This document shows, in pieces, positions 5,082 through 48,654 of a DNA stretch of 64,000 nucleotides (position 1 is its first letter; the number at the start of each line of letters is the position of its first letter). The position numbers and the translations under genes are program-made. A model generated the notes under the pieces. That model was not told where the DNA came from. It did no database searches and saw only the letters and a program-made list of their open reading frames with translations. This DNA comes from Thermodesulfovibrio sp. (lineage in GTDB: Bacteria; Nitrospirota; Thermodesulfovibrionia; UBA6902), in contig JALSHG010000012.1 of the NCBI GenBank assembly GCA_026982355.1, forward strand, positions 30,579-94,578. Reading direction: 5' to 3'.

Positions 5082-5086
5082 CGACA

Positions 5087-6211: not shown

Positions 6212-6226
6212 CCGGGTTGCCGGTAC

Positions 6227-31403: not shown

Positions 31404-31450
31404 TCTGCATACAATTCTATCATACCCGGCGGCGGAGATCTGTCATTCCG

Positions 31451-31474
31451 GCTTGTGCAACATTAAGGTTACGG
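31451..31474. repeat. Half copy (GCTTGTGCAACATTAAGGTTACGG)
   Basis: Upstream of yihY. Confidence 0.6.
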
Positions 31475-31961
31475 CTGTCTTATATCCCTCAAAGTATGCC
31501 TCTATATACCCGTGCCCCCACAGCCTTCGGCTCTTGCAGCCTTCTTTCAGACAGTTCGGCGGCCTCGGAAACGGGTATCTCCGCCCGAGCCTGATTATCT
31601 CCTTGAAATAAAGTACGAAAAAAAGCGACAATATCTTACACCTTGCCCGAAGCTGTGGAGGTCCTTCGTCAGACAGACGTTTCTCTCCACGCTTCGGGTT
31701 CCTTTCTTTGTTTTCTGCTCCGGTTATTTTAATCTGAATGGCTTTTTATTCGGGCCGGTTTATTTTGAATGATTTGCCGCTTTCGGGGTCGGTTTAATCT
31801 GCAAAACAACAGCGTGTTACTATGAAAATAACCTTTCAGAACTATCTTATAGAGCTTTGCCCGGGTTCGACGATCGTAGTAAAACAAATACAGGCCCGGG
31901 CATGCTAACGACCGAATTCAGCGGCGGCTATTCGCCGTCCGCTGGAATGAGTGGTTAGGTT

Positions 31962-32174
31962 TCATGCATATATCAACCTCTCTCCCTTAGGTTCAGGGAT
32001 AGGATCTCCAAACTCCTTTGCAGTATCGATCCATAACTGAATAGCATCTTGAACATTTTTTATCGCTTCTTCATAAGTCTTTCCATGTGCCGTACACCCA
32101 GGGAGTTCAGGGACTTCTGCGATAAAAGCATCGTCCTCTCTGCTCCAGTAGATTATAATTTCATATTTGTACAT
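31962..32174 (-). CDS. hicB: HicB-family antitoxin (UPF0150)
   Basis: 70 aa; ...PELPGCTAHGKTYEEAIKNVQDAI motif. Confidence 0.7.
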   Translation of the reverse strand: MYKYEIIIYWSREDDAFIAEVPELPGCTAHGKTYEEAIKNVQDAIQLWIDTAKEFGDPIPEPKGERLIYA

Positions 32175-32425
32175 TATCTGCCTCCAAGTTTATATTTAAC
32201 AATTATGTTTCTTACCTGCTTCACCTGATAAGGTTTTGCTTTATTACCTTCTCGTTGCAGATTAATCTTTTCTACTATGCCGTCCTTTCTGAATATATGA
32301 TGGCTACCTCTAACCCTCATTTCAAAGCCTAATTTCTCAAGCAAATTGCACAAATCTTCAAACTTGATATTGGCATCTGATGTGCCACTCAATATCTGCA
32401 GAATCAGTTTTTCATATTTACCCAT
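32174..32425 (-). CDS. hicA: HicA-family mRNA interferase toxin
   Basis: 83 aa; GSHHIF motif; stop overlaps hicB start (ATGA). Confidence 0.75.
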   Translation of the reverse strand: MGKYEKLILQILSGTSDANIKFEDLCNLLEKLGFEMRVRGSHHIFRKDGIVEKINLQREGNKAKPYQVKQVRNIIVKYKLGGR

Positions 32426-32437
32426 TTTTTTATTTTA

Positions 32438-32827
32438 TCATAACGGCTTTACCGCAAGCATCTCGTTTCCACCTCTCTGAAACTCATACTCAACTGGTAA
32501 AATCTCCACTGAATAGCCTTGTTGCTTAAGGAGATTCGATACTGAACATAGATGCCGTGACTTTATAGAACCGAGTTCAAGAACCTGAAAAACGGCACCG
32601 CTTGCGAGGATCTGCCTCAACTCCAGGCCGGGCGGAAGGGTCTCGTAGAAAATCCTCTTCACGTCGGGGTGTATCTCCCGGAATCTTGACAGGAGGTCGT
32701 CCATGACCATGAACTGGTTGCCGGCCATAAAAAGGACAAGGCCGGCGCTGTCCATATACTGCATATTGTGGATGTCGTCACCGCGGGAAGAAGGGATTTC
32801 GGGCATACTGCCGTCTCTGTCTTTCAT
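32438..32827 (-). CDS. Hypothetical protein at 3' end of nuo operon (start uncertain)
   Basis: 129 aa ORF, no recognisable motif, co-oriented between nuoN and hicA. Confidence 0.35.
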   Translation of the reverse strand: MKDRDGSMPEIPSSRGDDIHNMQYMDSAGLVLFMAGNQFMVMDDLLSRFREIHPDVKRIFYETLPPGLELRQILASGAVFQVLELGSIKSRHLCSVSNLLKQQGYSVEILPVEYEFQRGGNEMLAVKPL

Positions 32828-32944
32828 GAATCATTCACTCCTGCAATGCATGCCCGGACACGGAAAAGATTTTCCGTGCCGTTGGATGCTTCCCGTATAC
32901 GGGAAGGAAAAAAAGGCGCCGCAACAATCGGCTGCGGCCGGGAA

Positions 32945-34402
32945 TTACAGGAGACCGGGGATCGAAAATTTGACCAGATCGAGCAGAACCGACGGAAACA
33001 CACCTATAACGAGTATCATCACTGCGGTGACCGCAAGCGCGAAATTCATGGACGGCGAGGTGGCAAGGGCCACTTCCTCCCTCGGGTCCCTCATGTACAT
33101 GTACATTACAACCCGGAGGTAGAAGAACGCGGAAATCACACTGAACACCACCGCTATAACCGCCAGGTATGTATAGCCCGCATCGATCACCTCCATGAAC
33201 ACGTAGAACTTCCCTATGAACCCGGCCGTGGGCGGAATGCCCGTCAGCGCGAACATGAACACAAGCATGAGTGCAGAGGCCACGGGATGGCTCTTCGCAA
33301 GGCCCATGTAGTCATCGAGGTTCTCGCCCTGGAAGCCTTCCCTCCTGAGCATTATCACCACTGCAAAGGCGCCGATGTTCATGATTGCGTATATCATCAG
33401 ATAATTGGCGGTGCTCGCAAGTCCCCCGGGGGTGCCTGCTATTATTCCGAGGAGCATGTATCCCGCGTGGGCGATTGAGCTGTAGGCAAGCATCCTCTTT
33501 ATGTTCGTCTGCGCAAGTGCTATGATGCTTCCGGTTGCCATGGTAATAACGGCCAGCGGTATCAGGATGCTGTCCCACTGTATCTGCATGGCCCCGAATG
33601 CGCTGAACAGGACCCGTCCCAGGACCGCAAATCCCGCGGCCTTCGGCCCCACCGACATAAACGCCGTCACAGACGTCGGCGCGCCCTCATACACGTCGGG
33701 CGCCCACATGTGAAACGGCGCCAGGGCGATCTTGAATCCGAAGGCGACTATCATGAATATCAGACCCAGCAACACCATGGGGTTGCCCGTGATGTTCAGC
33801 GTCTGCAGTGAGGCGGCGATATCCTTCAGGTTCGTGGTGCCTGTCAGCCCGTATGTAAGGGAAATGCCGTAGAGGAAAAAGGCCGATGAAAAGGCGCCGA
33901 GGAAGAAGTACTTCAGGGCCGCTTCGTTCGAGCGGGGCTGTTTTCTCATCATGCCCGCAAGTATATAAGTGGAAAGCGCCATCAGCTCAAGGCCGAGATA
34001 AAGGACTATAAGATCCGAGGCCGAAGCCATTATCATCATGCCTGTCGTGGCAAAGATCAGAAGCGCATAGTATTCTCCGAAGGACGCCTTCTCTATAACC
34101 ATGTACCTGAGGGAAATGCAGATCGTCAGTATGACGTTGAGATAAAATATAAGCCTGAAAAAGTTGGAGTATCCATCCAGCACGAACATGTCCGAAAAGA
34201 CCGTCAGCGGTTCGCTGAAACCGTAAAGCCTGAGGGTTCCGTACAGCGCCACGAGGGTACCGGCAATGCCGACCACCGCGACAACCTCCTTCTTTTTCAC
34301 GATAAGATCAAGCAGCAAGAGTATTAAGGCAGTGCATATCATCGTAAGCTCGGGCACTATAGGCCGGATGCTGAGTAAACTGAATCCGCTTGACATATCC
34401 AT
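32945..34402 (-). CDS. nuoN: NADH-quinone oxidoreductase subunit N
   Basis: 485 aa polytopic antiporter-like subunit, last gene of nuoA-N. Confidence 0.9.
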   Translation of the reverse strand: MDMSSGFSLLSIRPIVPELTMICTALILLLLDLIVKKKEVVAVVGIAGTLVALYGTLRLYGFSEPLTVFSDMFVLDGYSNFFRLIFYLNVILTICISLRYMVIEKASFGEYYALLIFATTGMMIMASASDLIVLYLGLELMALSTYILAGMMRKQPRSNEAALKYFFLGAFSSAFFLYGISLTYGLTGTTNLKDIAASLQTLNITGNPMVLLGLIFMIVAFGFKIALAPFHMWAPDVYEGAPTSVTAFMSVGPKAAGFAVLGRVLFSAFGAMQIQWDSILIPLAVITMATGSIIALAQTNIKRMLAYSSIAHAGYMLLGIIAGTPGGLASTANYLMIYAIMNIGAFAVVIMLRREGFQGENLDDYMGLAKSHPVASALMLVFMFALTGIPPTAGFIGKFYVFMEVIDAGYTYLAVIAVVFSVISAFFYLRVVMYMYMRDPREEVALATSPSMNFALAVTAVMILVIGVFPSVLLDLVKFSIPGLL

Positions 34403-34403
34403 A

Positions 34404-35954
34404 TCAGAAAATCTCCCTTATGTATTCCGCTATCAGGCTTTCCTGTCCTGCATAGGCTGTCTGGTTCACCTGTTCAATCAAATGCTGCACCGACGCGTGC
34501 ATGTAGCTCAGGAAGGCATTGGGATAAAACCCTATCCAGAATACGAGCACGATCAACGGAATCAATGTGATAACCTCCCTGGCATTCAAATCCCATACGG
34601 GGTGGTGCCCCTCTTTTTCATAGTCAGGCTTCGGCTTTTCAAAGAATATATTCTGGTAAAGCCGCAGCATGTAGCCGGCGCCGAGTATGATGCCGGTGGC
34701 TGCAAATACACCAAGGAGCTTTTTTGCCTTGAAGGCGGAGAATATAATCAGGAACTCCCCGATGAAGCCGTTCGTGCTCGGCAGCCCGATCGAGGCCAGT
34801 GTAAGGATTATGAAAAAGCCCGCATACCACGGTACAAGCCTGGCAAAGCCGCCGTAGTCCGCGATCACCCTTGTGTGCGTCCTCTCGTAAATCATTCCTA
34901 TCATAAGGAACATCGCGCCCGTGACGATGCCGTGGTTCAGCATCTGCAGTATGCCGCCTTCAAGCCCCTGTGTGTTGAGCGCAAAGAGACCGAGTGTGAC
35001 AAAACCCATGTGGCTCACGCTGGAGTACGCTATCAGCCGCTTGAAATCCTTCTGCGCAAAGCAGACAAGCGCGCCGTAAATAATTGCGATAATGGAGAGT
35101 ATCAGCACCGGCCACATGAAGAACCGTGTTGCATCCGGCAGCATGGGCATGGAAAACCTCAGGAATCCGTAAGCGCCCATCTTGATCAGGACGCCGGCCA
35201 GTATGACACTGCCGGCAGTAGGCGCCTCTGTATGGGCGTCCGGAAGCCATGTATGCACCGGGAACATCGGGACCTTGACGGCAAACGCGGCAAAGAACGC
35301 TATAAACAGCCAGTACTGCAGCGTCACCGGATACTGCATGCTGCTCAGCGCCAGGATGTCGAGGGTCCTGCCGCCGTAGAAGTAAAGGACGACTATGCCG
35401 ACCAGCATGAGCACGCTTCCGACCAGCGTATACAGGAAAAACTTTATTGCGGCATAGACCCTGTTCTGGCCGCCCCATACGCCTATCAGCAGGAACATGG
35501 GGATCAGCATGGCCTCCCAGAACAGGTAGAAGAGGAAGAAATCCAGCGCCACGAACACGCCCAGCATTCCCGCCTCCATTGTGAGGATGGCTATGTGGAA
35601 CTCCTTTGTCTTTGTTTCGATAGCCTTCCATGAGACAAGGACACAGAGTATGCTGAGGACGGTCGTGAGAAAAATAAACAATATGCTGATGCCGTCTATG
35701 CCTATGAAATAGTTTATCCCCCATGACGGAATCCACTCGTGCCTTTCCACGAACTGCATCTTGTATGTGCTCTTGTCAAAGTTGCTCAGCAGCGGCAGGG
35801 AGATGACGAAAGTGGCGACCGTCACGCCGAGTGAAGTCCATCTTATAACATTCGCCTGCTTCAGGAACAGGAGAAGCACCGCGCCGATAACGGGCAGAAA
35901 CACCGTCCACGTCAGTATCGGGTAACCAAGGCTGTTTAATATTATATTTTCCAT
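34404..35954 (-). CDS. nuoM: NADH-quinone oxidoreductase subunit M
   Basis: 516 aa antiporter-like subunit. Confidence 0.9.
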   Translation of the reverse strand: MENIILNSLGYPILTWTVFLPVIGAVLLLFLKQANVIRWTSLGVTVATFVISLPLLSNFDKSTYKMQFVERHEWIPSWGINYFIGIDGISILFIFLTTVLSILCVLVSWKAIETKTKEFHIAILTMEAGMLGVFVALDFFLFYLFWEAMLIPMFLLIGVWGGQNRVYAAIKFFLYTLVGSVLMLVGIVVLYFYGGRTLDILALSSMQYPVTLQYWLFIAFFAAFAVKVPMFPVHTWLPDAHTEAPTAGSVILAGVLIKMGAYGFLRFSMPMLPDATRFFMWPVLILSIIAIIYGALVCFAQKDFKRLIAYSSVSHMGFVTLGLFALNTQGLEGGILQMLNHGIVTGAMFLMIGMIYERTHTRVIADYGGFARLVPWYAGFFIILTLASIGLPSTNGFIGEFLIIFSAFKAKKLLGVFAATGIILGAGYMLRLYQNIFFEKPKPDYEKEGHHPVWDLNAREVITLIPLIVLVFWIGFYPNAFLSYMHASVQHLIEQVNQTAYAGQESLIAEYIREIF

Positions 35955-35969
35955 TATCCGGTTTTTGTT

Positions 35970-36725
35970 TTATTTTGATTCAAGTATAAAACGCTTGTTG
36001 ATGGGCTGGGTCGGCCTGTTGTTGTGCCCTCCTATGACCGCCTCGAATTTCCTGATCTGCTCCCCGGACACCTCAATGGGGGTCTTCAGCACGCTCCAGT
36101 TGACCCCCTCACTGCACGGCGGCGTGGTCAGAGAGCCGTAGAAATGATAGTAGCCCCTTTCAGCGGGCAGCAGGTCGGCGGCGTTGACGGATATGGAGTC
36201 CACGGTGTTTTCCTCGTTTACGACAGGTGAGATGTTGTCCCATATCTTCTGTATGAGATCATTGGCCCTGCCCTCTTTCAGGAATACGCCCACCACGGCA
36301 AGCTCGTTGTTGCTGTTTTTATGAACGAGGTGCATTTCCATGCTGTAATGTTTGCCTCCAACGGTGTTTTCGCTCGGAGCATGAAAGTGAAACTGGAGGA
36401 GTTCGTACTTTTCGCCGTCCACAATTACGGAACTGCCCGGCAGGTAATTGACCTGTACGGTGTGGCCGTTGTTGATCACCTTCAGCGGCGTTGCCTTGTA
36501 GGAGAACACTATGTCTTGCAGGTCCGCCTTGTATGTTTTGTTGATATCCACGGGTGACTGGGCCTTGCCCTTTTCGCACATGCTGAAATCGTGTGACAGT
36601 TTGCCCCAGTGTTCAGGGCCGTTTTCCCCTGTATATCCCCACAGGCCGTGGGCGGCCTCCGCCCTGGATGAAAACGACATGAGTAATACCGCCGCCGACA
36701 GAATAAAAAGACATACTTTCTTCAC
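35970..36725 (-). CDS. Alpha-class carbonic anhydrase, secreted (Sec signal peptide), encoded inside the nuo operon between nuoL and nuoM
   Basis: GTG start at 36725 preceded by AAGGAGGG RBS; signal KKVCLFILSAAVLLMSFSSRAEA; alpha-CA motifs HWGY, QSPVDI, NNGH, QFHFHAPSE, EMHLVH, GSLTTPPCSE. Confidence 0.9.
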   Translation of the reverse strand: MKKVCLFILSAAVLLMSFSSRAEAAHGLWGYTGENGPEHWGKLSHDFSMCEKGKAQSPVDINKTYKADLQDIVFSYKATPLKVINNGHTVQVNYLPGSSVIVDGEKYELLQFHFHAPSENTVGGKHYSMEMHLVHKNSNNELAVVGVFLKEGRANDLIQKIWDNISPVVNEENTVDSISVNAADLLPAERGYYHFYGSLTTPPCSEGVNWSVLKTPIEVSGEQIRKFEAVIGGHNNRPTQPINKRFILESK

Positions 36726-36802
36726 AATAATCCCTCCTTCTGAAATAATATTTGCCTGGTAAAACAAACTGTATATGAATTCACTCTCTATCTGAATCAT
36801 AA

Positions 36803-38725
36803 TCACCTCAGGAAAATCCAGAATCCGATTATAAACATGGCGCCTAGCACCATGGCGAGGCCGTAGCTGGAGAGAAGGCCGGTCTGTATGGTCCTGAACC
36901 TCCTGCTGAAGGCGCCGATCAATGCCGGCACGCCGTTTACAATCCCTTCTATTATCTTTGCATCAAAAAAGCCGAGGATTATCCTGTCCGATGCCTTGAG
37001 CGTCGGCTGGACAATGGTCTTGCCGTAAAGTTCATCCACCCAGTACTTGTTGTACAGGAGCCTGTAGACCGGCTGGAACATGGCCCCCAGTTTCCCGGGC
37101 AGGTCGGTCTTCCTGATATACATGATATATGCTATCAGTATTCCGGCCAGACCCGCTATAATGGAGATTCCCATCACGGCCAGCTCTTCGGCATGTGAAC
37201 CCTCGCCTGCCGGATGCCCGAGCACCGGCGCGAGGAATTCACCGATCCTGTCCGCGTGTTCCAGAAAGATGGGCGGAATGCCCACCCAGCCAGCCGCCAC
37301 GGCGCCGACCGCGAGAATCATCAGAGGCACGGTTATCACGGGCGGCGACTCATGCAGGTGGCGCTCCTGCTCAGGAGTTCCGCGGAACTTGCCGTGGAAC
37401 GTCAGGTATATCAGCCTGAATGAGTAAAACGCGGTCAAGAGGGCCGCCGCGGCGGCAAGGAACCACAGGAACCTGCCGAGCCCGCCGCTCAGGTACGCCC
37501 TCCAGAGTATCTCGTCCTTGCTGAAGAAACCAGCGAAACCGGGTATGCCCGAAATGCTCAGCGATGCCAGGATAAACACCCAGTAGGTTATGGGCATGTA
37601 TTTTTTCAACCCGCCCATCTTCTGCATATTCTGCTCATCGTGCAGTGCATGTATAACGCTTCCCGATGCAAGGAAGAGCAGTGCCTTGAAGTAGGCGTGC
37701 GTATACAGGTGAAAGATTCCCGCTGTATAGGCACCCACCCCGAGCGCAAGGAACATGTACCCGAGCTGGCTCACCGTGGAGTACGCTATGACCCTCTTTA
37801 TGTCATTCTGCACAAGCGCAATGGTGGCCGCAAAGATGGCGGTCACGCCCCCGACGACCGCAACCGTGGCCATTGCCGATGCGGACAGGTTGAAAAGCGG
37901 GCTGCTGCGGGCGACCATGAACACGCCCGCCGTAACCATGGTTGCGGCGTGTATCAGTGCGGAAACCGGCGTGGGGCCTTCCATTGCGTCCGGCAGCCAC
38001 ACATGCAGCGGCAGCTGCGCCGATTTGCCCACGGCCCCGCAGAAGAGCAGCAGGCATATGACGGTAATGGTGTCGAACTGGTAACCGAGGATACTGATGG
38101 TCTGGCCGGCCACGCTGCCTGCATTCTCAAATACCTTCACGTATTCAAGGCTGCCGAATGTAAGGAAAATCAGTATCACGCCGAGACCGAAACCGAAGTC
38201 CCCGAACCTGTTGACTATAAAGGCCTTCTTGCCGGCGTCCGCTGCGGACTTTTTGTGGAACCAGAAGCCTATCAGGAAATAGGAGCACAGGCCCACGGCC
38301 TCCCAGCCGAAGTAAAGGAGCAGGAAGTTGTTGGCCATGACAAGGATGAGCATTGAGAAAACAAACAGGCTCAGATAGGCGAAGAAGCGGTAATAACCGC
38401 CGTCGCCGTGCATGTAGCCTATGGAATATATGAAGATAAGTGTGCTGATGGATGTAACCACCATCAGCATTACGGCGGTGAGCTGATCAATGAGAAACCC
38501 TATGGACACATTGAAGTCACCCGAGACTATCCAGCTGTATATGTTTATATTGATGACTTTTCCGCCCAGTACATCCATGAACGCGCTGACGGCAAGGATG
38601 AAAGAGGCGAACACGGCCGGCACCGCAATCCAGTGGGCCTTGTCTTTTATGTGGTTGCGCCCGAACAGGATGTTTATGACAAATGCAATAAACGGCAGTA
38701 ACGGTATCAATATATATTTCACCAT
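36803..38725 (-). CDS. nuoL: NADH-quinone oxidoreductase subunit L
   Basis: 640 aa antiporter-like subunit with long C-terminal helix region. Confidence 0.9.
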   Translation of the reverse strand: MVKYILIPLLPFIAFVINILFGRNHIKDKAHWIAVPAVFASFILAVSAFMDVLGGKVININIYSWIVSGDFNVSIGFLIDQLTAVMLMVVTSISTLIFIYSIGYMHGDGGYYRFFAYLSLFVFSMLILVMANNFLLLYFGWEAVGLCSYFLIGFWFHKKSAADAGKKAFIVNRFGDFGFGLGVILIFLTFGSLEYVKVFENAGSVAGQTISILGYQFDTITVICLLLFCGAVGKSAQLPLHVWLPDAMEGPTPVSALIHAATMVTAGVFMVARSSPLFNLSASAMATVAVVGGVTAIFAATIALVQNDIKRVIAYSTVSQLGYMFLALGVGAYTAGIFHLYTHAYFKALLFLASGSVIHALHDEQNMQKMGGLKKYMPITYWVFILASLSISGIPGFAGFFSKDEILWRAYLSGGLGRFLWFLAAAAALLTAFYSFRLIYLTFHGKFRGTPEQERHLHESPPVITVPLMILAVGAVAAGWVGIPPIFLEHADRIGEFLAPVLGHPAGEGSHAEELAVMGISIIAGLAGILIAYIMYIRKTDLPGKLGAMFQPVYRLLYNKYWVDELYGKTIVQPTLKASDRIILGFFDAKIIEGIVNGVPALIGAFSRRFRTIQTGLLSSYGLAMVLGAMFIIGFWIFLR

Positions 38726-38743
38726 GTCTTATCCTTCAATGAC

Positions 38744-39046
38744 TCATCCTTTCAGGAGGTTGATCTCATCCACCTTGATGGTGGGGTTGTTCCTGTAATA
38801 CGCGATTATTATGGCAAGGCCGATAGCCGCCTCCGCCGCCGCCACCGCAATCACGAAAAAGACAAGCACCTGCCCCCTCATGGACTGCAGGTAATGGCTG
38901 TAGGCGACCAGGCTTATATTCACTGAATTCAGCATCAGTTCAATTGACATGAATATCATGATCAGGTTGCGTCTTGTAAAAAAGCCCACAACGCCGATGC
39001 TGAACACCACGGCACTCAGTATTATGTACCAGCTTAACGGAACCAT
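38744..39046 (-). CDS. nuoK: NADH-quinone oxidoreductase subunit K
   Basis: Start taken at [10 protein letters not shown] (matches NuoK N-terminus MIPL...); upstream ORF extension runs through a tandem repeat and is judged non-coding. Confidence 0.85.
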
Positions 39047-39060
39047 TGCTCGCTCCATGC

Positions 39061-39135
39061 GCTTCTTGAGTATTGAGTATTGAATTTTGAATTTTGAATC
39101 TTGAATCTTGAATCTTGAATCTTGAGTATCGAATT
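39061..39135. repeat. Tandem 7-8 bp microsatellite (TTGAGTA/TTGAATTT/TTGAATC units, about 10 copies) in the nuoJ-nuoK intergenic gap
   Basis: Direct reading: cttgagtattgagtattgaattttgaattttgaatcttgaatcttgaatcttgaatcttgagtatcgaatt. Confidence 0.8.
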
Positions 39136-39143
39136 CCGCATAA

Positions 39144-39656
39144 TCATATCCTTTTCTTTGCAAGCACCACTGCGCCTACAATGGCCACAAGCAGCACAAG
39201 AGAGGCTATCTCAAACGGCAGCAGATACTTGGTATACATCACCTTTCCCAGCGTCATTATGCTGCCTTCGGACCTTATGGCCTCTATCGAGTATTCCCCG
39301 AGCGGCGGGAGCACGGTTATTCCGGCAACAACCGTCACCACGAACAGGGCGAATATCACCCCTATGGCCGCGCCCAGGACCCAGTGTTTCTGCACCTTGC
39401 GGACCGTCAGCTCTTTTTTCAGATTCAGCAGCATGATAACGAACAGAAACAGTACGAGTATGGCCCCCGCGTACACGATTATCTGTATGGCGGCCAGAAA
39501 TTCTGCATTCAGGAAGAGATAAAGCCCGGCTATGTGTACAAAGAGGACCAGCATCCACAGGACGCCGTGGACCGGATTCCTCCTCGTTATCATAACAACG
39601 GACAACAAGGTTATCATGCCTGCAAAATATGCGAAAAACCACTGTGGTGCCGTCAT
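39144..39656 (-). CDS. nuoJ: NADH-quinone oxidoreductase subunit J
   Basis: 170 aa, 5 TM. Confidence 0.9.
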
Positions 39657-40207
39657 GTCGCCTTTTTCCCCTCCGCTTGATGATGCCCTGCCGCGGGAAC
39701 TCCGAAGTCCTCTGATTTCGGTCTCCAGAATTTCTCCAGGTACTCCCTTCCCTTTGAGTTCGCCATGTACTTGTCCCAGTTATGCAGCAGGCGGTCTTTT
39801 GTATAATACAGTTCCTCCCGGCTGTAGCCGGAGTACTCGAAGTGGTCGGTAAGCACTATTGCGCCGTAGGGGCATGCCTCCACGCAAAAGGCGCAGTAGA
39901 CGCATCTCAGGACCTCCACCTCGTACCTGTCCACCACCTTTTTGTGGTCGTCATCCTCGCTTGTATAAATATGTATGCACTGCGAAGGACACATTGCGGC
40001 GCATAATCCGCACCCCACGCATTTCTCCCTCCCCGTCTCCGGGTCCCTTACAAGCGCGTGAAGCCCCCTGGAGCCGGGAAAGGGCTCCCTTTTCTCCGTG
40101 GGGTACTGCCTTGTCACAGAGGGAGTGAAGAAATGCCTCAGCGTGAGGGCAAGACCCTTCAGGATTTCAATGAAAAATACTTTTTTAATGAATTCGTTGG
40201 CTGTCAT
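39653..40207 (-). CDS. nuoI: NADH-quinone oxidoreductase subunit I (2x[4Fe-4S])
   Basis: CVGCGLCAAMCP and CVYCAFCVEACP ferredoxin motifs. Confidence 0.92.
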   Translation of the reverse strand: MTANEFIKKVFFIEILKGLALTLRHFFTPSVTRQYPTEKREPFPGSRGLHALVRDPETGREKCVGCGLCAAMCPSQCIHIYTSEDDDHKKVVDRYEVEVLRCVYCAFCVEACPYGAIVLTDHFEYSGYSREELYYTKDRLLHNWDKYMANSKGREYLEKFWRPKSEDFGVPAAGHHQAEGKKAT

Positions 40208-40243
40208 GGTCTGTAAATTTCATTTCATTCCAAGTTTAAAATT

Positions 40244-41215
40244 TCATAAGAGTTTAATCAGTCCGGTGAAAATAATATTCGCCAGGGCCAGCGGTATAAA
40301 GAGCTTCCATCCGAGGCCCATCAGCTGGTCATACCTGTATCTGGGCAGCGTGGCCCTCACCCAGAAATAGAAAAATATGAACGCATAAACCTTCAGCAGG
40401 AACCAAACTATACCGGGAACGCGGGCGAATATCCAGAAATCAGGCCCGCTCCAGCCCCCTAAAAAGCAGATGACGGCCAGCGCGGACATAACGAACATGC
40501 CTGCATATTCAGCCATAAAGAACAGTCCGAAACGTATGCCGCTGTATTCCGTGGCATAACCCGCCACAAGCTCGGTCTCCGCCTCCGGCAGGTCGAACGG
40601 CGCCCTGTTCGTCTCGGCCAGTGCGGCCATGAGGAATACAAAAAAGGCCACGATCTGGGGCAGCAGGAACCACTGCTCCGACTGCGCCCTTACAATATCC
40701 GAGAGGTTTGCGCTGCCGGCCATCATCATGACACCCACGAGGCTCAGGCCCATTGCGATTTCATAACTTATAACCTGGGCCGATGACCTCAGGCCGCCCA
40801 GGAAAGAATACTTGGAATTGGATGCCCAGCCTGCAAGTATTACGCTGTAGGAGCCCACTGATGAAAGCGCAAGGATATAGAGTATCCCTATATTAATATC
40901 CGCAATCGAAAAGCCCTCCCACATGGGGATGACCGCAAGGGAGCCGATCGCCGCGAGCAGCCCGATGATGGGCGCTATGTAGAAAATGGGCTTGTCCGCG
41001 TTCGAGGGTATGATATCTTCCTTGAAAAACAGCTTGATACCGTCGGCTATGGGCTGCAGCAGGCCGTGCCAGCCGACCCTCATGGGTCCGAGCCTTGCCT
41101 GCATGTGGCCTATCACCTTGCGCTCAAAGTACACCACATAGGCTACATGCAGCATCAACACATTGACCACGATAAAGACCTTGATAAATATCCAGAGCCA
41201 TTCCGGCATATTCAA
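40244..41215 (-). CDS. nuoH: NADH-quinone oxidoreductase subunit H
   Basis: 323 aa polytopic, ND1-like. Confidence 0.9.
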   Translation of the reverse strand: MNMPEWLWIFIKVFIVVNVLMLHVAYVVYFERKVIGHMQARLGPMRVGWHGLLQPIADGIKLFFKEDIIPSNADKPIFYIAPIIGLLAAIGSLAVIPMWEGFSIADINIGILYILALSSVGSYSVILAGWASNSKYSFLGGLRSSAQVISYEIAMGLSLVGVMMMAGSANLSDIVRAQSEQWFLLPQIVAFFVFLMAALAETNRAPFDLPEAETELVAGYATEYSGIRFGLFFMAEYAGMFVMSALAVICFLGGWSGPDFWIFARVPGIVWFLLKVYAFIFFYFWVRATLPRYRYDQLMGLGWKLFIPLALANIIFTGLIKLL

Positions 41216-43791
41216 CCCCTACCCTGTATTTTCTCTATTTTCACTTCGCATCCCTCCGTACCGGGAGCCTTGGTAATCTTATCAATACTGAAATTCATCA
41301 AATCATACACCCCGCTGCCCGTGAAATTGCCGCTCAGGAACACCCTGTTGTCCATGATGGTCCCGTCAACGGACACGGGCGCCTCGCACGAGCCTGCCGG
41401 CGTGGACAGCCTGACCTTATCGCCTTCTTTCAACCCGAGCTTTGCCGCACCGGCCGCGCCTATCCTCACGGTTGCCTCAGGGCATATCTTCATGAGCGCC
41501 CGGGACCTCCTTGAGAGCGTGCCCGAGTGAAACAGCGGTTTGTCAACGGCAAGATAGAAGTCCGCATTGTAGTCCTTTGCCCCATCCGGCATCTCGGGCA
41601 CCTCGTACATCTCTCCCCTGAGAGGCTCGCCGTGGTAAGGCCACAGCGCATCTCCCGCCGCTATCTCTCCGTAGGTCAGGTCGCGGTGCAGCGGAGAGAC
41701 CCTTGCCAGCTCGCGCATCACATCCTCCGGTCCGGAGTAGCTGGCCGGAACTCCCATCCTGCGGGAAAGCTCAGAGAGAATCCTCCAGTCCTCCATGCCC
41801 GAGGATGTCTCAACCGCCTTTCTCAGCAGTTGGATCCTCCGTTCAAGATTGGTATATGTCCCGGATTTTTCCGTCCATCCAAGGGCCGGAAGCACGACAT
41901 CGGCCATCTCCGCGGTCTCGGAAAGGAATATATCCTGGACAACAAGGAAATCAAGGGACCGCAACGCCTCTTTTACAAAGGAGCTGTGCGGAATATTGCG
42001 TACCGGGTTGTCTCCCATCACGTACAGGGCCTTGATATTCCCCTTTCCGGCGCCTTCGATGATCTCCAGCAGGGTCAGGCCCTCCCTGTCCGGGACAGCG
42101 GCCTTCCATACCGCCTCGAATTTGCCCCTGAAGTCCGGAACGTTGACCGGCCTTCCTCCCGGAAGCATGTCGGGCACACAGCCTGCATCAATAAGCCCCT
42201 GCTCGTTCGGTCTGCCCGAGAGCAGGTACAGCCTTGCCTCAAGCAGGTAGGTGAGTCCCGCCACCGCAAACAGGGCCCTGTGGCCGTCCGAGCGCTGGAC
42301 AATGTCCATACCGAGGACAATGGATGTGGATGCGCTCTGCAACAGCTTTTTCACGGTCTCGTCAATACCCTCGATACCCGTCTTTTTCCCGGATATCCTG
42401 TCGGAAAGCTCCCTGATCCCCTTGTCCACATAGGGCATATCACCCCGCACGCCCCTGTCACTGAAGACGCCTGTCAAAACCTCCTCCAGGACCTCGGCCT
42501 CCCTGAATACGCGGGGAATCACCTGCAGGGTCCGGAACTTGTCCAGTCCCTTTGCGTAGCCCACGACGATCACGCCGGCCCCGCGCCTTGCAGCTTCTCT
42601 TATGGAAAGGCCGAGCACGGGATTCACCGCCGCGGGGTCATCACCAAGGACCAGGATTGTCTCGGAATTCTTAAGGCCGTCCAGGAGATTGGCCGTTATG
42701 CCCTGTCCGAGCAGGTCCTCAAAGTATTTCTGCGCGGCCGCAAAACCGGTCCTTGAAACAGAGTCTATATTATTCGTTCCGCATGCCGTCCTCATAAATC
42801 TCTGAAATACGTAATTGTCCTCGTTTGTGCATCTCGGCGAGGCAATGCCCGCAATGGAGGCGCCGCCTTCCGCGTTTTTAACAGCCGTTAGTTTTGCGGC
42901 GACGATATCAAGCGCCTCGCTCCACGTGGCCTGCTGAAGCGTGCCGTCTTTTCTCACAAGCGGGGTCCTGAGCCTGTCCTCGCTGTGTATGTATTCATAG
43001 CCGAACCGCCCCCTTGAACAGAGGAGTCCCCTGTTCACCCCCAGGTCCATCCTGGGGATTACACGCTTTATGGAGTCGTCCCTGACCTGCACCACGAGCG
43101 AGCATCCGACGCCGCAGTACGGGCAGACGGTCTCCACTTCCCTGTCCAGTTGCCAGGGCCTGAAGCTGTGAATATACAGGCGGCTTAAGATGGCGCCCAC
43201 AGGGCACACAGTCAGACAGTTGCCGCAGTACTCGCAGTTGAACGACTCGGATGAGAAGGGCTCCACCCTCGAGCGGTTCCCCCTTCCTATCACGCTGATG
43301 GCGGATGCGCCCTGCACGTCGTTGCACATCCTTACACACCTCGTGCATACAACGCACCTCTCCATATTCCTTGCAAGGATATGGTCCTTGTGACTTTCGG
43401 GAACCTTTCTCTTTTCCTCGGTGTACCTGCCCGTGGTGGGCCCGTACCTGTTGACAAGGTCCTGCAGCTCGCATTCCCCCGCCTTGTCGCAGTAAGGGCA
43501 GTCAAGCGGGTGGTTTATGAGCAGAAACTCCAGTATCCCGCGCCGGGTTCTTGATATCTCCTCGGACTCTGTTCTCACGACCATGCCGTCCGCGGCCATC
43601 AGCGTGCAGGAATTCTGCAGTTTCGGCATCCTCTCCACCTCCACCACGCAGAGCCTGCATCCGCCGTAGGGTTTCAAAGCCTCGTGATGGCACAGTGTCG
43701 GTATCTTGATGCCGGCCTTCCTGGCGGCGTCAAGCACGGACATCGGCTTGTCCAGCGTAATCTCTTTTTCGTTGATAGTCAGAGTTATCAT
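41212..43791 (-). CDS. nuoG: NADH-quinone oxidoreductase subunit G (75 kDa, long form with molybdopterin-like domain)
   Basis: 859 aa; N-terminal 2Fe-2S and 4Fe-4S cysteine clusters (CHHEALKPYGGCRLC..., CDKAGEC, CVVCTRCVRMC). Confidence 0.92.
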   Translation of the reverse strand: MITLTINEKEITLDKPMSVLDAARKAGIKIPTLCHHEALKPYGGCRLCVVEVERMPKLQNSCTLMAADGMVVRTESEEISRTRRGILEFLLINHPLDCPYCDKAGECELQDLVNRYGPTTGRYTEEKRKVPESHKDHILARNMERCVVCTRCVRMCNDVQGASAISVIGRGNRSRVEPFSSESFNCEYCGNCLTVCPVGAILSRLYIHSFRPWQLDREVETVCPYCGVGCSLVVQVRDDSIKRVIPRMDLGVNRGLLCSRGRFGYEYIHSEDRLRTPLVRKDGTLQQATWSEALDIVAAKLTAVKNAEGGASIAGIASPRCTNEDNYVFQRFMRTACGTNNIDSVSRTGFAAAQKYFEDLLGQGITANLLDGLKNSETILVLGDDPAAVNPVLGLSIREAARRGAGVIVVGYAKGLDKFRTLQVIPRVFREAEVLEEVLTGVFSDRGVRGDMPYVDKGIRELSDRISGKKTGIEGIDETVKKLLQSASTSIVLGMDIVQRSDGHRALFAVAGLTYLLEARLYLLSGRPNEQGLIDAGCVPDMLPGGRPVNVPDFRGKFEAVWKAAVPDREGLTLLEIIEGAGKGNIKALYVMGDNPVRNIPHSSFVKEALRSLDFLVVQDIFLSETAEMADVVLPALGWTEKSGTYTNLERRIQLLRKAVETSSGMEDWRILSELSRRMGVPASYSGPEDVMRELARVSPLHRDLTYGEIAAGDALWPYHGEPLRGEMYEVPEMPDGAKDYNADFYLAVDKPLFHSGTLSRRSRALMKICPEATVRIGAAGAAKLGLKEGDKVRLSTPAGSCEAPVSVDGTIMDNRVFLSGNFTGSGVYDLMNFSIDKITKAPGTEGCEVKIEKIQGRG

Positions 43792-43870
43792 AAAAATCAG
43801 TTACACGCCGCGGGCCGCGGGGTTTTTTCCATAACTCAACCCGCAACACGCAATTCGCAGCGCCTATATT

Positions 43871-45133
43871 TCAATTCCTGAACTTACACTGTTTATCCCT
43901 GATATGTTCCTCGAATTCACTCCTGAAGTGTTTTATCATTCCCGTAACCACGCCCGCGGCGCCGTCTCCGAGGGGGCAGAATGTCCTGCCGGACATCACC
44001 CCTGCAACATCGGAAAGGAGATTGATGTCCCCTTCCCTTCCCTTTCCGTGCTCTATCCGCTCGAGTATCTTCCTGAGCCAGTCCGTGCCTTCCCTGCACG
44101 GGGTGCATTTCCCGCAGGACTCGTGCTCAAAGAACTTCATGGCCCTGTAAGTCACCCTGACCATGCACACCGATTCGTCCATGACTATCACCGCTCCGGA
44201 GCCGAGCATGCTGCCGGCCTTGGGCATTGCCACAAAATCCATGGCGCAGTCTATGGCGTCGGCCGGGAGAACCGGGGTGGAGATGCCGCCGGGGATCACC
44301 GCCTTCAGCTTTCCGTTGTCTTTGATTCCACCGGCGTGTTTATAGATGATGTCCCTCAGGCTCGTGCCCATGGGAAGTTCGTATACTCCGGGATTTTCAA
44401 CAAAACCGCTCACGCAGTAGAGCTTTGGGCCCGGACAGTCGCTGCTGCCTATCGCTGAATATGCCTCTCCGCCGATTTCGATGATATAAGGGATGTTGGA
44501 GAGGGTTTCGACATTATTGACAATAGTCGGCATGCTCCATGCACCCACATTCACCGGAAAGGGCGGCTTGGTCCTGGGCTGCCCTTTCTTGCCCTCGATT
44601 GATTCTATAAGCGCCGTCTCCTCGCCGCAGATATATGCGCCCGCCCCCTGATGCACGGAAAGCCGGAATCTCACACCCTTGCCGAGGATATCGTCCCCGA
44701 GGAAATTCTCCTTGTATGCCTGCTCTATGGCCCCCTCAAGGATATCCTTTGCAGCGGGATACTCGCCCCTGAGATAGATATAACCGTACTCGGCGCCCAG
44801 GGCATATCCCGATATGACCATGCCCTCTATCAGCAGGTGCGGATTCTTCTCGAGTATGGGCCTGTCCTTGAAGGTTCCGGGCTCGCCCTCGTCCGCATTG
44901 CATATCAGGTATTTCGGAAATTTCGGGTCAGCCATGGCAAAATTCCATTTCATGGCCGTGGGGAATCCAGCGCCGCCGCGGCCCCTGATGCCTGATTTCT
45001 TGACTTCCTCCACTATATCCGCGGGCTGCATCTGCAGGGCCTTTGCCAGACTCCGGTATCCGCCGGCCTTCCGGTATTCACCGATGTCGGCGGAATTGGG
45101 ATTGTCTATGTTTTTCAGCAGGACCTTTTCCAT
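43871..45133 (-). CDS. nuoF: NADH-quinone oxidoreductase subunit F (51 kDa, FMN/NADH-binding)
   Basis: 420 aa; GRGGAGFPT FMN-site motif, C-terminal 4Fe-4S (ESCGKCTPCREG). Confidence 0.93.
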   Translation of the reverse strand: MEKVLLKNIDNPNSADIGEYRKAGGYRSLAKALQMQPADIVEEVKKSGIRGRGGAGFPTAMKWNFAMADPKFPKYLICNADEGEPGTFKDRPILEKNPHLLIEGMVISGYALGAEYGYIYLRGEYPAAKDILEGAIEQAYKENFLGDDILGKGVRFRLSVHQGAGAYICGEETALIESIEGKKGQPRTKPPFPVNVGAWSMPTIVNNVETLSNIPYIIEIGGEAYSAIGSSDCPGPKLYCVSGFVENPGVYELPMGTSLRDIIYKHAGGIKDNGKLKAVIPGGISTPVLPADAIDCAMDFVAMPKAGSMLGSGAVIVMDESVCMVRVTYRAMKFFEHESCGKCTPCREGTDWLRKILERIEHGKGREGDINLLSDVAGVMSGRTFCPLGDGAAGVVTGMIKHFRSEFEEHIRDKQCKFRN

Positions 45134-45143
45134 GGCTTCCGTA

Positions 45144-45608
45144 TTATTTATAGTTCTCCAGTATCTCTTCTATCCTCTTTTCCGAAAGATTGTCGTAAAA
45201 ATCCGTATTGACCAGCATGGCCGGCGCCGTGCCGCATGCGCCTATGCACTCCATTATCACGAGTGAGAACCTGCCGTCCCCGCTCGTGCCGTTGGCAGGC
45301 ACGCCGTATCTTGTTTCCAGGAAATCCACGAGTTTCCCGGCGCCGAGTATCATGCATGAAATGTTCGTGCACAACTGAATCACGTGCCGCCCCGCGGGCT
45401 TGTGTTTATACATCGAGTAAAAAGAGGCCGTTCCCCTCACAACCGCCTCGGGCAGGTTGAGCGAGCGCGCCACGCACGTCATGGCCTCCCGGCTGAGCCA
45501 GCCGAACTCCCGCTGGGCGATGTACAGGGACGGCAACAGCGCGCTCCTGCGGTCCGGGTACTTCGCCTTTATTCCCTCGATTTCCTTCAATACGGTATCG
45601 TTAAACAT
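45144..45608 (-). CDS. nuoE: NADH-quinone oxidoreductase subunit E (24 kDa, 2Fe-2S)
   Basis: 154 aa; thioredoxin-like 2Fe-2S cysteines (CTNISC...CIGACGTAP). Confidence 0.92.
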   Translation of the reverse strand: MFNDTVLKEIEGIKAKYPDRRSALLPSLYIAQREFGWLSREAMTCVARSLNLPEAVVRGTASFYSMYKHKPAGRHVIQLCTNISCMILGAGKLVDFLETRYGVPANGTSGDGRFSLVIMECIGACGTAPAMLVNTDFYDNLSEKRIEEILENYK

Positions 45609-45657
45609 ATCAACAATGCATCCCTGTCACTTGTTCACTGAATAATCATCAATTGTT

Positions 45658-46881
45658 TTACCTGTCACATTCTCCCAGAACGATATCAATGCTTCCGATG
45701 TTTGCGATTACGTCCGCAACCAGTTCGCCCTCGCATATGGCGGGCAACGCCGAAATATGCACAAAGGACGGTGATCTTATCCTCATCCTGTACGGCCTTC
45801 CCGTCCCGTCACTGACGAAAAAGAAACCCAGTTCTCCCTTGGGAACCTCGGTCGCAACATAAAGCTCGCCCTCCGGCGCGGTCTGGGGCCCTTTTGTGAT
45901 AAGCACGAAGTGGTGTATGAGATGCTCCATGTCGCTGAGCACCTTGTCCTTTGCAGGCAGGGTGAACTTGGGCGCGTCGGCCATTATGGGCCCTTTGGGT
46001 ATCTTTTCGATACACTGCCTGATAATTGAATTGGACTCGCGGAATTCATCCATCCTCACGCGGTAACGGTCGTATATGTCGCCGTTCTTACCTATGCACA
46101 CCTGCCACTTGACCTTGTCGTAGACCCCGTAGGATGAAATTTTCCGTATATCGTAGGAAACGCCCGACCCCCTCAGCGCCGGGCCGCTCAGGCCCCAGTT
46201 GATGGCGTCTTCAGCGGAGATTACGCCGACACCCTTTGTGCGGCGCAGCCATATGCGGTTTTTGTCTATCAGGGTCTCATACTGCTCCACCCTGCCCGGG
46301 AATTCCTCGGTAAACTTGTAAAGGTCTTCCAGCCACTGGTCGTCCACATCGTTTTTCAGGCCGCCGATTCTCGGGTAGCTCACCGTGAGCCTTGCGCCGC
46401 AGAGCCTCTCGAATAAATCAAGGATTTTTTCCCTCTCCCTGAAACAGTACAGGAACACCGTCATTGCGCCTATATCAAGTGCATGGGTTGCAAGCCAGAG
46501 GAGGTGGTTTGTTATGCGGGCCATCTCCCCGACAATGGTCCTTATGTATTCCGTCCTTTCCGGGACCTTTATGCCGAAGAGCTTCTCCACCGCCACGCAG
46601 TAGCCTATGTTGTTGGCCATGGAGGCGATGTAATCAAGGCGGTCCGTGAGCGGTATTATCTGCATGTAGTTCCTGTTCTCCGCGAGCTTCTCAACCCCCC
46701 TGTGCAGATAACCGACATACGGGGTGCACTTGACAATGGTTTCACCGCTCAGGTCGAGCACCAGCCTCAGGACACCGTGCGTGGCAGGGTGCTGGGGCCC
46801 CATGCTGAGAGTCAGCTCTTTTTCGGACAGGCGTGCGTCGCTGTCCGCTGCATCAACCTCTTTACCGCTGATGTTTTCCAT
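45658..46881 (-). CDS. nuoD: NADH-quinone oxidoreductase subunit D (49 kDa)
   Basis: 407 aa; separate from nuoC (unfused). Confidence 0.92.
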
Positions 46882-46902
46882 AATGACCGAAATTTCAGTT
46901 CG

Positions 46903-46956
46903 CCTTACAGTTGCATAAAAACACCGCCTGCCGGCTTATGCAACATCAAGGTTTTA
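46903..46956. repeat. Copy of the element (CCTTACAGTTGCATAAAAACACCGCCTGCCGGCTTATGCAACATCAAGG) inside the nuo operon, in the 100-bp nuoC-nuoD gap
   Basis: Palindromic arms TTGCATAAAAAC / GCTTATGCAA; 22 bp upstream of nuoD ATG. Confidence 0.8.
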
Positions 46957-46981
46957 AAGAACTGTTAAAAAATACAGGTTA

Positions 46982-47514
46982 TCAAGATTGAATATTCCAC
47001 TCTTTATCATGGGAATGCAAATCCTTGAGCTCTTCGAAACCCTTGTACTCCCAGCCCTCCGGGCCTTTCAGGGGATAATCCTTTCTTAACGGATAGCCCT
47101 CCCAGTCTTCCGGCATAAGTATCCGCCTCAGATCCGGATGGCCGCTGAAGACTATGCCGTACATGTCGCAGGCCTCCCTCTCATGCCAGTTTGCGCCCTT
47201 CCATACGGGAACAACCGAATCAACCGACGGGTCGCTCTCGGGCAACTGCACCTTGAGCATGAGCCTGTGCTTGAATTTTATGGAATAGAGATTATACACC
47301 ACCTCGAAACGGAGTCTCCTGCCGGGGTAATCCACACCGCACAGGTCCGCCAGGTAATTCATCCGGATGTCCGGCGCGTCATGGAGATAGCGGCATATGT
47401 CGACGATCTTCTCCCGTTTGACGGTCACGAAGACCTGATCCCTGAACTGCTTCACATCAACGATTTCGTCTGAAAACTTCCCTTTAAGCCTCTCGACTAT
47501 CTCCAGGGGCTCCA
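46982..47514 (-). CDS. nuoC: NADH-quinone oxidoreductase subunit C (30 kDa)
   Basis: Start taken at [10 protein letters not shown] with AAAGGAG RBS; longer ORF extension overlaps nuoB and is rejected. Confidence 0.88.
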
Positions 47515-48015
47515 TCTGAAATGCTCCTTTTGTATTTTCTCCTGAAGTTTCATTACGCCGTCCATCAACGCCTCGGGTCTCGGGGGGCACCCGGGCACAT
47601 AGACATCCACGGGCAGAAATGTATCGCACCCCTGAACGACCCCGTAGGTATTGTATATATTTCCGGAGCAAGCGCAACTGCCCATCGCGATCACATACCG
47701 GGGTTCGGGCATCTGGTCGTAAACCCTCCGCACCACCGGCGCCATCTTCTTTGTTACGGTGCCCGCGATAATAATGACGTCCGACTGCCTGGGGGACGCG
47801 CGGAATATAACGCCGAAACGGTCAAAGTCATAATGGCTTGCACCTGAGGCCATCATTTCAATTGCACAGCAGGCGAGACCGAAGGTCATGGGCCAGAGCG
47901 AGTTTTTCCTGCCCCAGTTTATGACATTGTCCAGGGTGGTTATAAACATGTTGGTACCCGGCACGACCTTTGTGCCTTTCTCTACTTCAACCAATGTCGC
48001 ACTGTCCTTCACCAT
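47497..48015 (-). CDS. nuoB: NADH-quinone oxidoreductase subunit B (N2 4Fe-4S)
   Basis: 172 aa; CCxxE...GSCACSG...PGCPP cluster motifs. Confidence 0.93.
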
Positions 48016-48053
48016 TTTTCCGTCAACCGTTCAGCGGGCGGCAGCCGTATCCC

Positions 48054-48425
48054 TCATTCCCACTCAAACGCCCCTTTCTTCCAGACATACACATAGCCTA
48101 TCAGCAGTATAAATATGAACAGCATCATCTCGACAAACCCGAATATCCCGAGCTTGTCATAGGCAACGGCCCATGGATAGAGAAAAACCGCTTCAACATC
48201 GAATACGACAAACAGCATTGCAACAATATAGAACTTGACGGAGAACCTGTATCTCGGTTCGCCGACAGGCGGATTCCCGGATTCATAAGGCGTGAGTTTC
48301 TGGGCGTACGGTCTCCTCGGCCTCAAAAGAATTCCCACGACCAGCGCGCCCATACCAATGGCCGCTGCAAGCAAAAAAGTTATCAGTACCGGCAAGTAGT
48401 CCGATGGGATGTAAGTTCCGGGCAT
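48054..48425 (-). CDS. nuoA: NADH-quinone oxidoreductase subunit A (start ambiguous: ATG 48425 or TTG 48464)
   Basis: 3-TM ND3-like protein; the longer TTG-initiated ORF coincides with a TTGACA promoter-like hexamer. Confidence 0.85.
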   Translation of the reverse strand: MPGTYIPSDYLPVLITFLLAAAIGMGALVVGILLRPRRPYAQKLTPYESGNPPVGEPRYRFSVKFYIVAMLFVVFDVEAVFLYPWAVAYDKLGIFGFVEMMLFIFILLIGYVYVWKKGAFEWE

Positions 48426-48434
48426 AGCCCTTGT

Positions 48435-48464
48435 TTTATACACAAAAACTGTTGCTTCTGTCAA
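48435..48464 (-). promoter_or_regulatory. Candidate sigma70-type promoter for nuo operon (TTGACA-N18-TATAAA) ending 9 nt before nuoA ATG 48425
   Basis: Hexamer match on minus strand; implies near-leaderless nuoA or alternative TTG start. Confidence 0.25.
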
Positions 48465-48654
48465 TGAATATTAGTCTTGCTTATCATAAGTTTTAACTTA
48501 TTTATCACCGTGGAGAAAACCGGCTGTCAACAGAGCCAATACTGGCTTGCGGTTATCCGGAAATCACCCGTGTCCGGACAGGCGGTTCCGCGGGACCGGA
48601 AACAATTTCTCCCTTTATTTTTTTCCTTTAAAAAAATATAATACGGTTGAAATT

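Follow-up and report, generated by a model that had tools for sequence, protein, structure and literature searches.

An alpha-carbonic anhydrase gene between nuoL and nuoM in the complex I operon of an uncultured Nitrospirota lineage

The cyanobacterial NDH-1MS/MS' enzymes with CupA/CupB (ChpY/ChpX) combine a complex I-type enzyme with a CO2-hydrating module; CupA and CupB are unrelated to alpha-carbonic anhydrases (alpha-CAs), lie on the cytoplasmic side and are associated with the specialised subunits NdhD3/F3. In eukaryotes, the external carbonic anhydrase (CA) of algae and the so-called transport metabolons of CA IV/IX work together with H+ extrusion or H+-coupled transporters. CA-family proteins also associate with the membrane arm that complex I has in plant and protist mitochondria (PMC3359495), and in the bacterial DAB/MpsAB systems the NuoL-like PF00361 subunit DabB is paired with the beta-CA-like DabA (PMC13144422), while for Nitrospira and Helicobacter pylori periplasmic alpha-CAs have been discussed in terms of buffering the periplasm and converting inorganic carbon (PMC13109103). 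Here we report on a 64,000-nucleotide stretch of DNA from Thermodesulfovibrio sp. (GenBank assembly GCA_026982355.1, contig JALSHG010000012.1, positions 30,579 to 94,578), hereafter the window, in which an alpha-CA gene lies between nuoL and nuoM of the complex I operon. An earlier note on this DNA, made from the sequence alone, had called such an arrangement undescribed, and a full-text search for CA together with nuoL/nuoM, the nuo operon or Thermodesulfovibrionia likewise returned no publication on it. The connections of CA to complex I that the note enumerated were incomplete, as DAB/MpsAB, a closer bacterial precedent (PMC13144422), was missing.

An intact alpha-carbonic anhydrase gene within the nuoA-N operon

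Inspection of the open reading frames (ORFs) and their translations revealed the gene order nuoL-CA-nuoM on the minus strand of the window. The CA coding sequence (35970-36725, minus strand) runs from a GTG start to a TAA stop, encodes a precursor of 251 amino acids (aa) and is matched by the profile of eukaryotic-type, i.e. alpha, carbonic anhydrases (PF00194) at E=1.2e-49 and 169.6 bits (cut-off 27) over profile positions 1-253 of 254. It is flanked upstream by nuoL (36803-38725, 640 aa), which was assigned by TIGR01974 (793 bits, cut-off 407.5) and NF005141 (787 bits, cut-off 556), and downstream by nuoM (34404-35954, 516 aa; TIGR01972, 640 bits, cut-off 263.8), after which nuoN follows (32945-34402, 485 aa; TIGR01770, 480 bits, cut-off 332.6), all on the minus strand. 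According to Pfam and NCBIfam, the 14 subunit genes nuoA to nuoN are all present, contiguous and co-oriented in canonical order, with the CA gene as the sole non-nuo gene among them. The previous claim that the gene is embedded in the nuo operon was thus confirmed by a complete nuoA-N set and by spacers that contain no convincing promoter or terminator; a scan of 32000-49500 called no minus-strand promoter-like or terminator-like site in either spacer next to CA.

The GTG at 36725 sits 7 nt 3' of AAGGAGG (36733-36739), the strongest Shine-Dalgarno sequence of the operon, which belongs to a nuoL-CA spacer of 77 bp (36726-36802, minus strand). This distance had been counted as 78 bp before, whereas the 15 bp given for the spacer between the CA stop and nuoM (35955-35969, minus strand) proved accurate. 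The maximal ORF would comprise 278 aa (36806 to 35970) and overlaps the nuoL stop, and some pipelines predict a CA product of 276 or 236 aa. Four related loci, however, have an ATG either at this codon or at the one next to it, preceded by the same Shine-Dalgarno sequence, and one of them (L001) contains an in-frame TAA upstream of the CA start. The placement of the Shine-Dalgarno sequence, the ATG codons of the relatives and the upstream TAA in L001 led us to assign the start to the GTG at 36725, in agreement with the GTG start and strong ribosome-binding site proposed in the earlier note. The last (3') 40 nt of the nuoL-CA spacer are conserved together with the Shine-Dalgarno sequence in 5/5 CA-bearing loci, and the CA-nuoM spacer is conserved in L001, L170 and L005. 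As nuoM begins only 15 bp after CA and lacks a good Shine-Dalgarno sequence, its expression probably depends on a transcript running through the CA gene; this short distance and the missing promoter and terminator signals in the spacers suggest that CA is co-transcribed with nuoA-N. A hairpin at 36854-36836 was rejected as a terminator, since it falls within the coding sequence of nuoL, where it arises from Met/Ala/Gly codons, and its T-run is poor. An RNA element in the spacers was likewise rejected, as no Rfam match was obtained over 31500-49500.

The description of the gene product as a textbook secreted alpha-CA holds for the motifs QSPVDI, QFHFHAPSE and GSLTTPPCSE and for the Sec signal, while the motif HWGY had been misread, as the translation contains LWGY...EHWGK. 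In an alignment of 47 sequences, the Zn ligands H113/H115/H132, the shuttle residue H88, E119 and T200/T201 are present and (nearly) invariant, and the cysteine pair C50/C204 is invariant. Based on a motif-based mapping, we take H113, H115, H132, H88, E119 and T200 to correspond to H94, H96, H119, His64, Glu106 and Thr199 of human carbonic anhydrase II (hCAII). The closest solved structure is that of the Persephonella marina enzyme (6im0, E=3e-81), and further solved relatives include the alpha-CAs of Sulfurihydrogenibium, Thermovibrio, Neisseria and Thiomicrospira. Foldseek searches with an AlphaFold2 (AF2) model (mean predicted local distance difference test score, pLDDT, of 86.3) returned only alpha-CAs as top matches, with 6im0 at E=1.8e-32 and template modelling (TM) scores of 0.81/0.91, and with overall TM scores of 0.81-0.91 to bacterial alpha-CAs; the protein is accordingly modelled with the alpha-CA fold and its central twisted beta-sheet.

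A Sec-type signal peptide is predicted at residues 1-24 (36654-36725, minus strand; VKKVCLFILSAAVLLMSFSSRAEA), comprising a KK n-region, a hydrophobic core (Kyte-Doolittle values up to 2.95) and an A-x-A site, with the predicted cleavage between AEA and AHG. In the AF2 model a helix at residues 2-17 and a disordered stretch at 19-28 precede the confidently modelled CA domain. The alignment revealed neither a twin-arginine motif nor a lipobox in the N-terminus, and sequence and AF2 model contain no extra domain, transmembrane helix or lipid anchor. The nearest free alpha-CAs of Nitrospirota mostly carry a lipobox (...FGC) and a Pro/Glu/Lys-rich linker ahead of the catalytic domain (alignment A1, P0004-P0067), whereas all five embedded CAs described below are devoid of both and have a plain signal peptidase I (SPase-I) signal. 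The N-terminal features point to export of the CA to the periplasm, and the protein as a whole is predicted, judging from its sequence, to be a functional, soluble, Sec-exported alpha-CA capable of CO2 hydration.

Conservation of the gene order and layout of the operon

The contig of the window is identical in separate ENA and Logan assemblies, and the order nuoL-CA-nuoM was also found in four other assemblies, giving five in total from different projects. These are GCA_027049525.1 (L001; identities of 96% for NuoL and 86% for CA), GCA_013152795.1 (L002; about 97% and 91%), GCA_054018075.1 (L170; 94% and 88%) and the 2-kb contig of GCA_006243175.1 (L005; 84% for a C-terminal NuoL fragment and 75% for CA). 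The CA reading frame is intact in all five. Pairwise ratios of nonsynonymous to synonymous substitution rates (dN/dS) range from 0.07 to 0.15 for CA at dS values of 0.5-1.7, with 0.04-0.06 for the flanking nuoL and nuoM, and these values indicate that the CA gene is under purifying selection. No direct or inverted repeats bracketing the gene were found, and its GC content at third codon positions (GC3) of 0.694 compares with 0.66-0.755 for nuoB-N (nuoA: 0.56). A recent mobile insertion was therefore rejected, given the missing repeats and the neighbour-like GC and GC3. The earlier note had named absence of CA from this junction in relatives, combined with flanking repeats, as the outcome that would speak against its proposal; instead, four other assemblies carry the gene and repeats are lacking.

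In a neighbour-joining tree the five embedded CAs form one group, which is sister to the free CAs from metagenome-assembled genomes (MAGs) of Nitrospirota, and this topology indicates that the embedded CAs are monophyletic and of a single origin. GCA_013152795.1, which has the whole-genome shotgun (WGS) prefix JAADFS01, is the type genome of a GTDB candidate genus bearing that same name; a cold-seep preprint (10.1101/2024.11.15.623595) includes JAADFS01 in its list of candidate genera from Nitrospirota and Pseudomonadota. The named NuoL relatives are MAGs of Nitrospirae, Nitrospiraceae and Thermodesulfovibrionia. From the sequences compared, the order nuoL-CA-nuoM appears confined to one narrow, uncultured, genus-level and JAADFS01-like lineage of Nitrospirota.

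Among the CA-bearing loci, L005 has a mosaic nuoL (1-1101), in which two stretches of the gene (positions 822-1090 and 1690-1923) share ~90% identity with the CA-bearing L170, while positions 1090-1690 are ~85-93% identical to the CA-less loci L171 and L172. Either the CA cassette has been spread by recombination or the 2-kb metagenome contig is a chimera, and because of this mosaic L005 was rejected as a distant CA-bearing lineage and not counted as an independent one. In L170 (GCA_054018075.1, 5295-6845), nuoM is present in two pieces (146 and 368 aa) directly after CA, owing to either a frameshift or a sequencing error.

The remaining part of the operon, nuoA-K, occupies 38744-48464 on the minus strand, and every subunit was matched by Pfam: nuoA (48464-48054), nuoB (48015-47497), nuoC (~47515-46982), nuoD (46881-45658), nuoE (45608-45144), nuoF (45133-43871), nuoG (43791-41212), nuoH (41215-40244), nuoI (40207-39653), nuoJ (39656-39144) and nuoK (~39046-38744). 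An intrinsic-terminator-like hairpin (32918-32938, minus strand; 8-bp stem with 6 GC pairs, followed by a T-run) lies directly after nuoN; it was the top-ranked minus-strand terminator-like site of the scan mentioned above and is taken to mark the putative end of the operon. The 97-bp spacer between nuoJ and nuoK consists mostly of a heptanucleotide tandem repeat (TCTTGAA, ~9 copies on the plus strand, 39064-39134); its counterparts in L001 and L002 are 1 bp and 76 bp long, which means that junction length also varies inside the clade. NuoG (41212-43791, minus strand) is a long form of 859 aa with complete molybdopterin-oxidoreductase and molybdopterin-dinucleotide-binding domains, as in all relatives inspected. 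Divergent from nuoA, a sensor kinase with HAMP, HisKA and HATPase domains is encoded at 48547-50295 (plus strand), whose predicted periplasmic part contains the motifs CRACH (CxxCH) and CYNASCH and which may be a haem-binding redox sensor beside the nuo promoter region. Beyond the hairpin after nuoN, ~1.5 kb (31404-32940) contain no confident gene; the one ORF of appreciable size therein (32438-32827, 129 aa) has no Pfam match, and no Rfam match was obtained from 31500 on. The other genes of the window have housekeeping functions and tell nothing about carbon metabolism.

Functional link or operon passenger

With modest confidence, we favour the explanation that the nuoL-nuoM junction received a functional periplasmic CA in a single capture event, that the expression of this CA is tied to complex I, and that inorganic-carbon handling is the most likely link between the two. 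The capture would have occurred in an ancestor of the JAADFS01-like lineage. Transcription of the gene would proceed as part of the nuoA-N mRNA, its own strong Shine-Dalgarno sequence would serve translation, and the amount of periplasmic CA would follow complex I expression and respiratory capacity. On the positively charged side of the membrane (P-side), the enzyme would equilibrate CO2 and H2O with HCO3- and H+, so that protons delivered by the respiratory chain and CA together could turn abundant external HCO3- into membrane-permeant CO2. If the metabolism is net-oxidising, the reaction would run the other way and respiratory CO2 would be trapped outside as HCO3- and H+; in either direction CA would render the bicarbonate buffer kinetically competent at the exit side of the pump. 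Both the physiological coupling to complex I and the P-side role in CO2/HCO3-/H+ conversion are what we infer from this arrangement, and we regard the CA as an operon passenger with regulatory coupling rather than as a structural subunit.

Several observations weigh against this explanation. The nearest relatives outside the clade, L168 (NuoL identity 87%), L169 (84%), L172 (83%) and L086 (78%), join nuoL and nuoM directly with gaps of 4-10 bp, and L171 (83%) has a 161-bp non-coding insert (5921-6081) and no CA between the two genes. A related metagenome contig (L101, NuoL about 75% identical) harbours cheW (3573-4058; PF01584, E=4e-44) between nuoL and nuoM on the same strand, and in the distant nuo operon L165 a CitMHS_2 transporter (~4900-6481; PF16980, E=1e-180) is located between nuoM and nuoN. 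The observation made in the earlier note is confirmed, and the interpretation given there is supported in part. Since unrelated cargo occurs at the same and at neighbouring junctions, the position by itself says little about whether CA and complex I are functionally linked. Among the matches listed, CA was found at or near the nuoL-nuoM junction in 0/80 metagenome nuoL loci (NuoL 42-78% identical), and an alpha-CA was found inside a nuo operon in 0/80 diverse bacterial loci from species-representative genomes. These two sets of 80 loci and five targeted look-ups constitute a sample rather than an exhaustive census, and neither collection scan returned the clade of the window itself. An independent recurrence of the linkage, which would have spoken for its functional selection, did not turn up in the sampled loci. 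Furthermore, NuoL (640 aa) and NuoM (516-517 aa) are equally long with and without CA, and the CA has neither an anchor or extra domain nor the lipobox and linker of its nearest free homologues. An internal promoter in the conserved AT-rich spacer is possible, and within the 64-kb window no gene bears on autotrophy.

Two further observations were made on the junctions compared. The ends of the insert in L171 are GC-rich and partly inverted, its core is AT-rich, and it may represent a small repeat element; it was rejected as the remnant of a lost CA because it has no nucleotide or translated similarity to CA. In an Ignavibacteriaceae MAG (L012), the only other case of adjacency among the 80 alpha-CA loci listed, an alpha-CA is convergent with the 3' end of nuoN, 58 bp apart (2583-3326 and 3384-4340), which is probably a matter of chance.

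The alternative that survives best, and that we consider a serious though lesser possibility, is that of a neutral hitch-hiker: a CA gene that changes place in these genomes would have landed in an insertion-tolerant junction and been kept for a need of periplasmic CA, with the operon merely supplying transcription and the position being unrelated to complex I. Free CA orthologues of other Nitrospirota are indeed located at three kinds of sites unrelated to each other, one after fabF and two with different neighbours. In both L173 and L175 a 77-aa ORF lies upstream of the free CA, but a shared neighbour was rejected, as the two ORFs are not homologous and their placement is a coincidence. The cheW gene, the CitMHS_2 transporter and the 161-bp insert at nuo junctions of relatives, the restriction to one narrow clade with independent recurrence in 0/160 sampled loci (among the matches listed) and the unchanged lengths of NuoL and NuoM fit this alternative as well. 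It accounts less readily for a CA gene kept in place over dS values of 0.5-1.7 with its spacer and Shine-Dalgarno sequence conserved, or for the absence of lipobox and linker from all five embedded copies, which suggests some re-tuning, although retention and absence are both still compatible with a neutral position. The evidence fits an inorganic-carbon role and a neutral passenger alike, and the lack of recurrence as well as the unrelated cargo favour caution.

Going beyond the favoured explanation, CA and NuoL/NuoM could form a functional P-side module in which ejected protons are used on the spot for HCO3- dehydration, providing a respiration-driven CO2 supply, possibly with transient docking. 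We consider this unlikely; if true, such a module would mirror on the periplasmic side the CupA and DAB systems of the cytoplasm and would constitute a third independently evolved coupling of a complex I-type proton machine to inorganic-carbon acquisition. Even more doubtful is a physical accessory subunit, i.e. a secreted CA that docks on the periplasmic face of the NuoL/NuoM arm and couples proton ejection directly to HCO3- dehydration. Such a CA would match, on the P-side, the gamma-CA domain that plant complex I carries or the CupA of cyanobacterial NDH-1. The bacterial alpha-CAs known so far, however, are soluble enzymes of the periplasm, and the AF2 model argues against docking, as it shows a plain alpha-CA domain after a signal peptide and neither a lipid anchor nor a transmembrane helix or additional domain; so do the lengths of NuoL and NuoM, which are the same as in CA-less relatives. 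The Shine-Dalgarno sequence, which is much stronger than those of the nuo genes, moreover implies a non-stoichiometric, higher synthesis of CA. What speaks for a subunit is the position of the gene exactly between those of both distal antiporter-like subunits and translationally adjacent to nuoM, together with the precedent of CA modules on complex I-type enzymes (PMC3359495, PMC13144422). Finally, a chimeric metagenome assembly or a decaying junction pseudogene, for which the mosaic nuoL of L005 as a possible assembly chimera and the split nuoM of L170 could be invoked, is effectively refuted by the same gene order in five assemblies from different projects, the intact frame in all of them, a dN/dS of about 0.1 and the full set of catalytic residues.

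If the linkage preferred here is functional, bacteria can tie a periplasmic CA to their respiratory proton pump, a P-side solution would join the known N-side CA modules (gamma-CA, CupA, DAB), and the locus would inform on how uncultured Nitrospirota of sediments and seeps acquire or dispose of CO2. If the gene is only a passenger, it represents a clean, dated case of a foreign gene fixed within one of the most conserved operons of bacteria. Taken together, the CA gene, cheW, the transporter and the non-coding insert show that the nuoL-nuoM-nuoN junctions are permissive insertion points.

Comparison with known systems

The CA of the window is a member of the bacterial periplasmic alpha-CAs, with which it shares family and fold at 43-53% identity and TM scores of 0.8-0.9. 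The set compared comprised the enzymes of Persephonella marina (6im0), Sulfurihydrogenibium (4x5s/4g7a), Thermovibrio ammonificans (4c3t), Neisseria gonorrhoeae (1kop), Hydrogenovibrio/Thiomicrospira crunogena (4xz5) and Helicobacter pylori (4ygf). Signal peptide, disulfide pair and the full catalytic set are common to the window CA and these periplasmic enzymes; it differs from other alpha-CAs in its gene context, a nuo operon as compared with 0/80 loci among the matches listed.

The DAB systems resemble the locus in that a CA-type catalyst is genetically paired with a NuoL-type proton-conducting subunit and that proton flow is linked to the interconversion of CO2 and HCO3- (PMC13144422). DabA, however, is cytoplasmic and of a beta-CA-like type, and has a helix that is inserted into DabB, whereas the CA of the window is a canonical secreted alpha-CA and the NuoL beside it a canonical complex I subunit that scores above the NuoL equivalog cut-off. 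A DAB locus is recognised by DabA beside a stand-alone DabB; here, no DabA-type gene is present at the locus, and the PF00361 neighbours are bona fide NuoL, NuoM and NuoN above equivalog or subfamily cut-offs within a 14-gene operon. The cyanobacterial CupA/NdhF3 module, to which the earlier note had drawn a functional parallel, is not represented either, as the NuoL of the window reaches 268 bits compared with an NdhF3 cut-off of 588.7, and no ChpXY-family domain was found in the operon. The gamma-CA domain of mitochondrial complex I is built from gamma-class structural subunits with a left-handed beta-helix (hexapeptide-repeat) fold on the matrix side (N-side); the CA of the window, by contrast, is of the alpha class, soluble and predicted to be exported to the P-side, and is thus distinct from the gamma-CA type.

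In terms of the proposed principle, the eukaryotic transport metabolons come close, as in both cases a proton extruder and an outward-facing alpha-CA would speed the conversion of HCO3- to CO2 or the buffering of protons, yet these systems are eukaryotic, involve other transporters and have no coupling at the operon level. We therefore regard the locus as a new operon variant made from ordinary parts, for which a physiological rationale is plausible, and which resembles DAB, CupA and gamma-CA only in the pairing of a CA with a complex I-type machine, here on the opposite side of the membrane.

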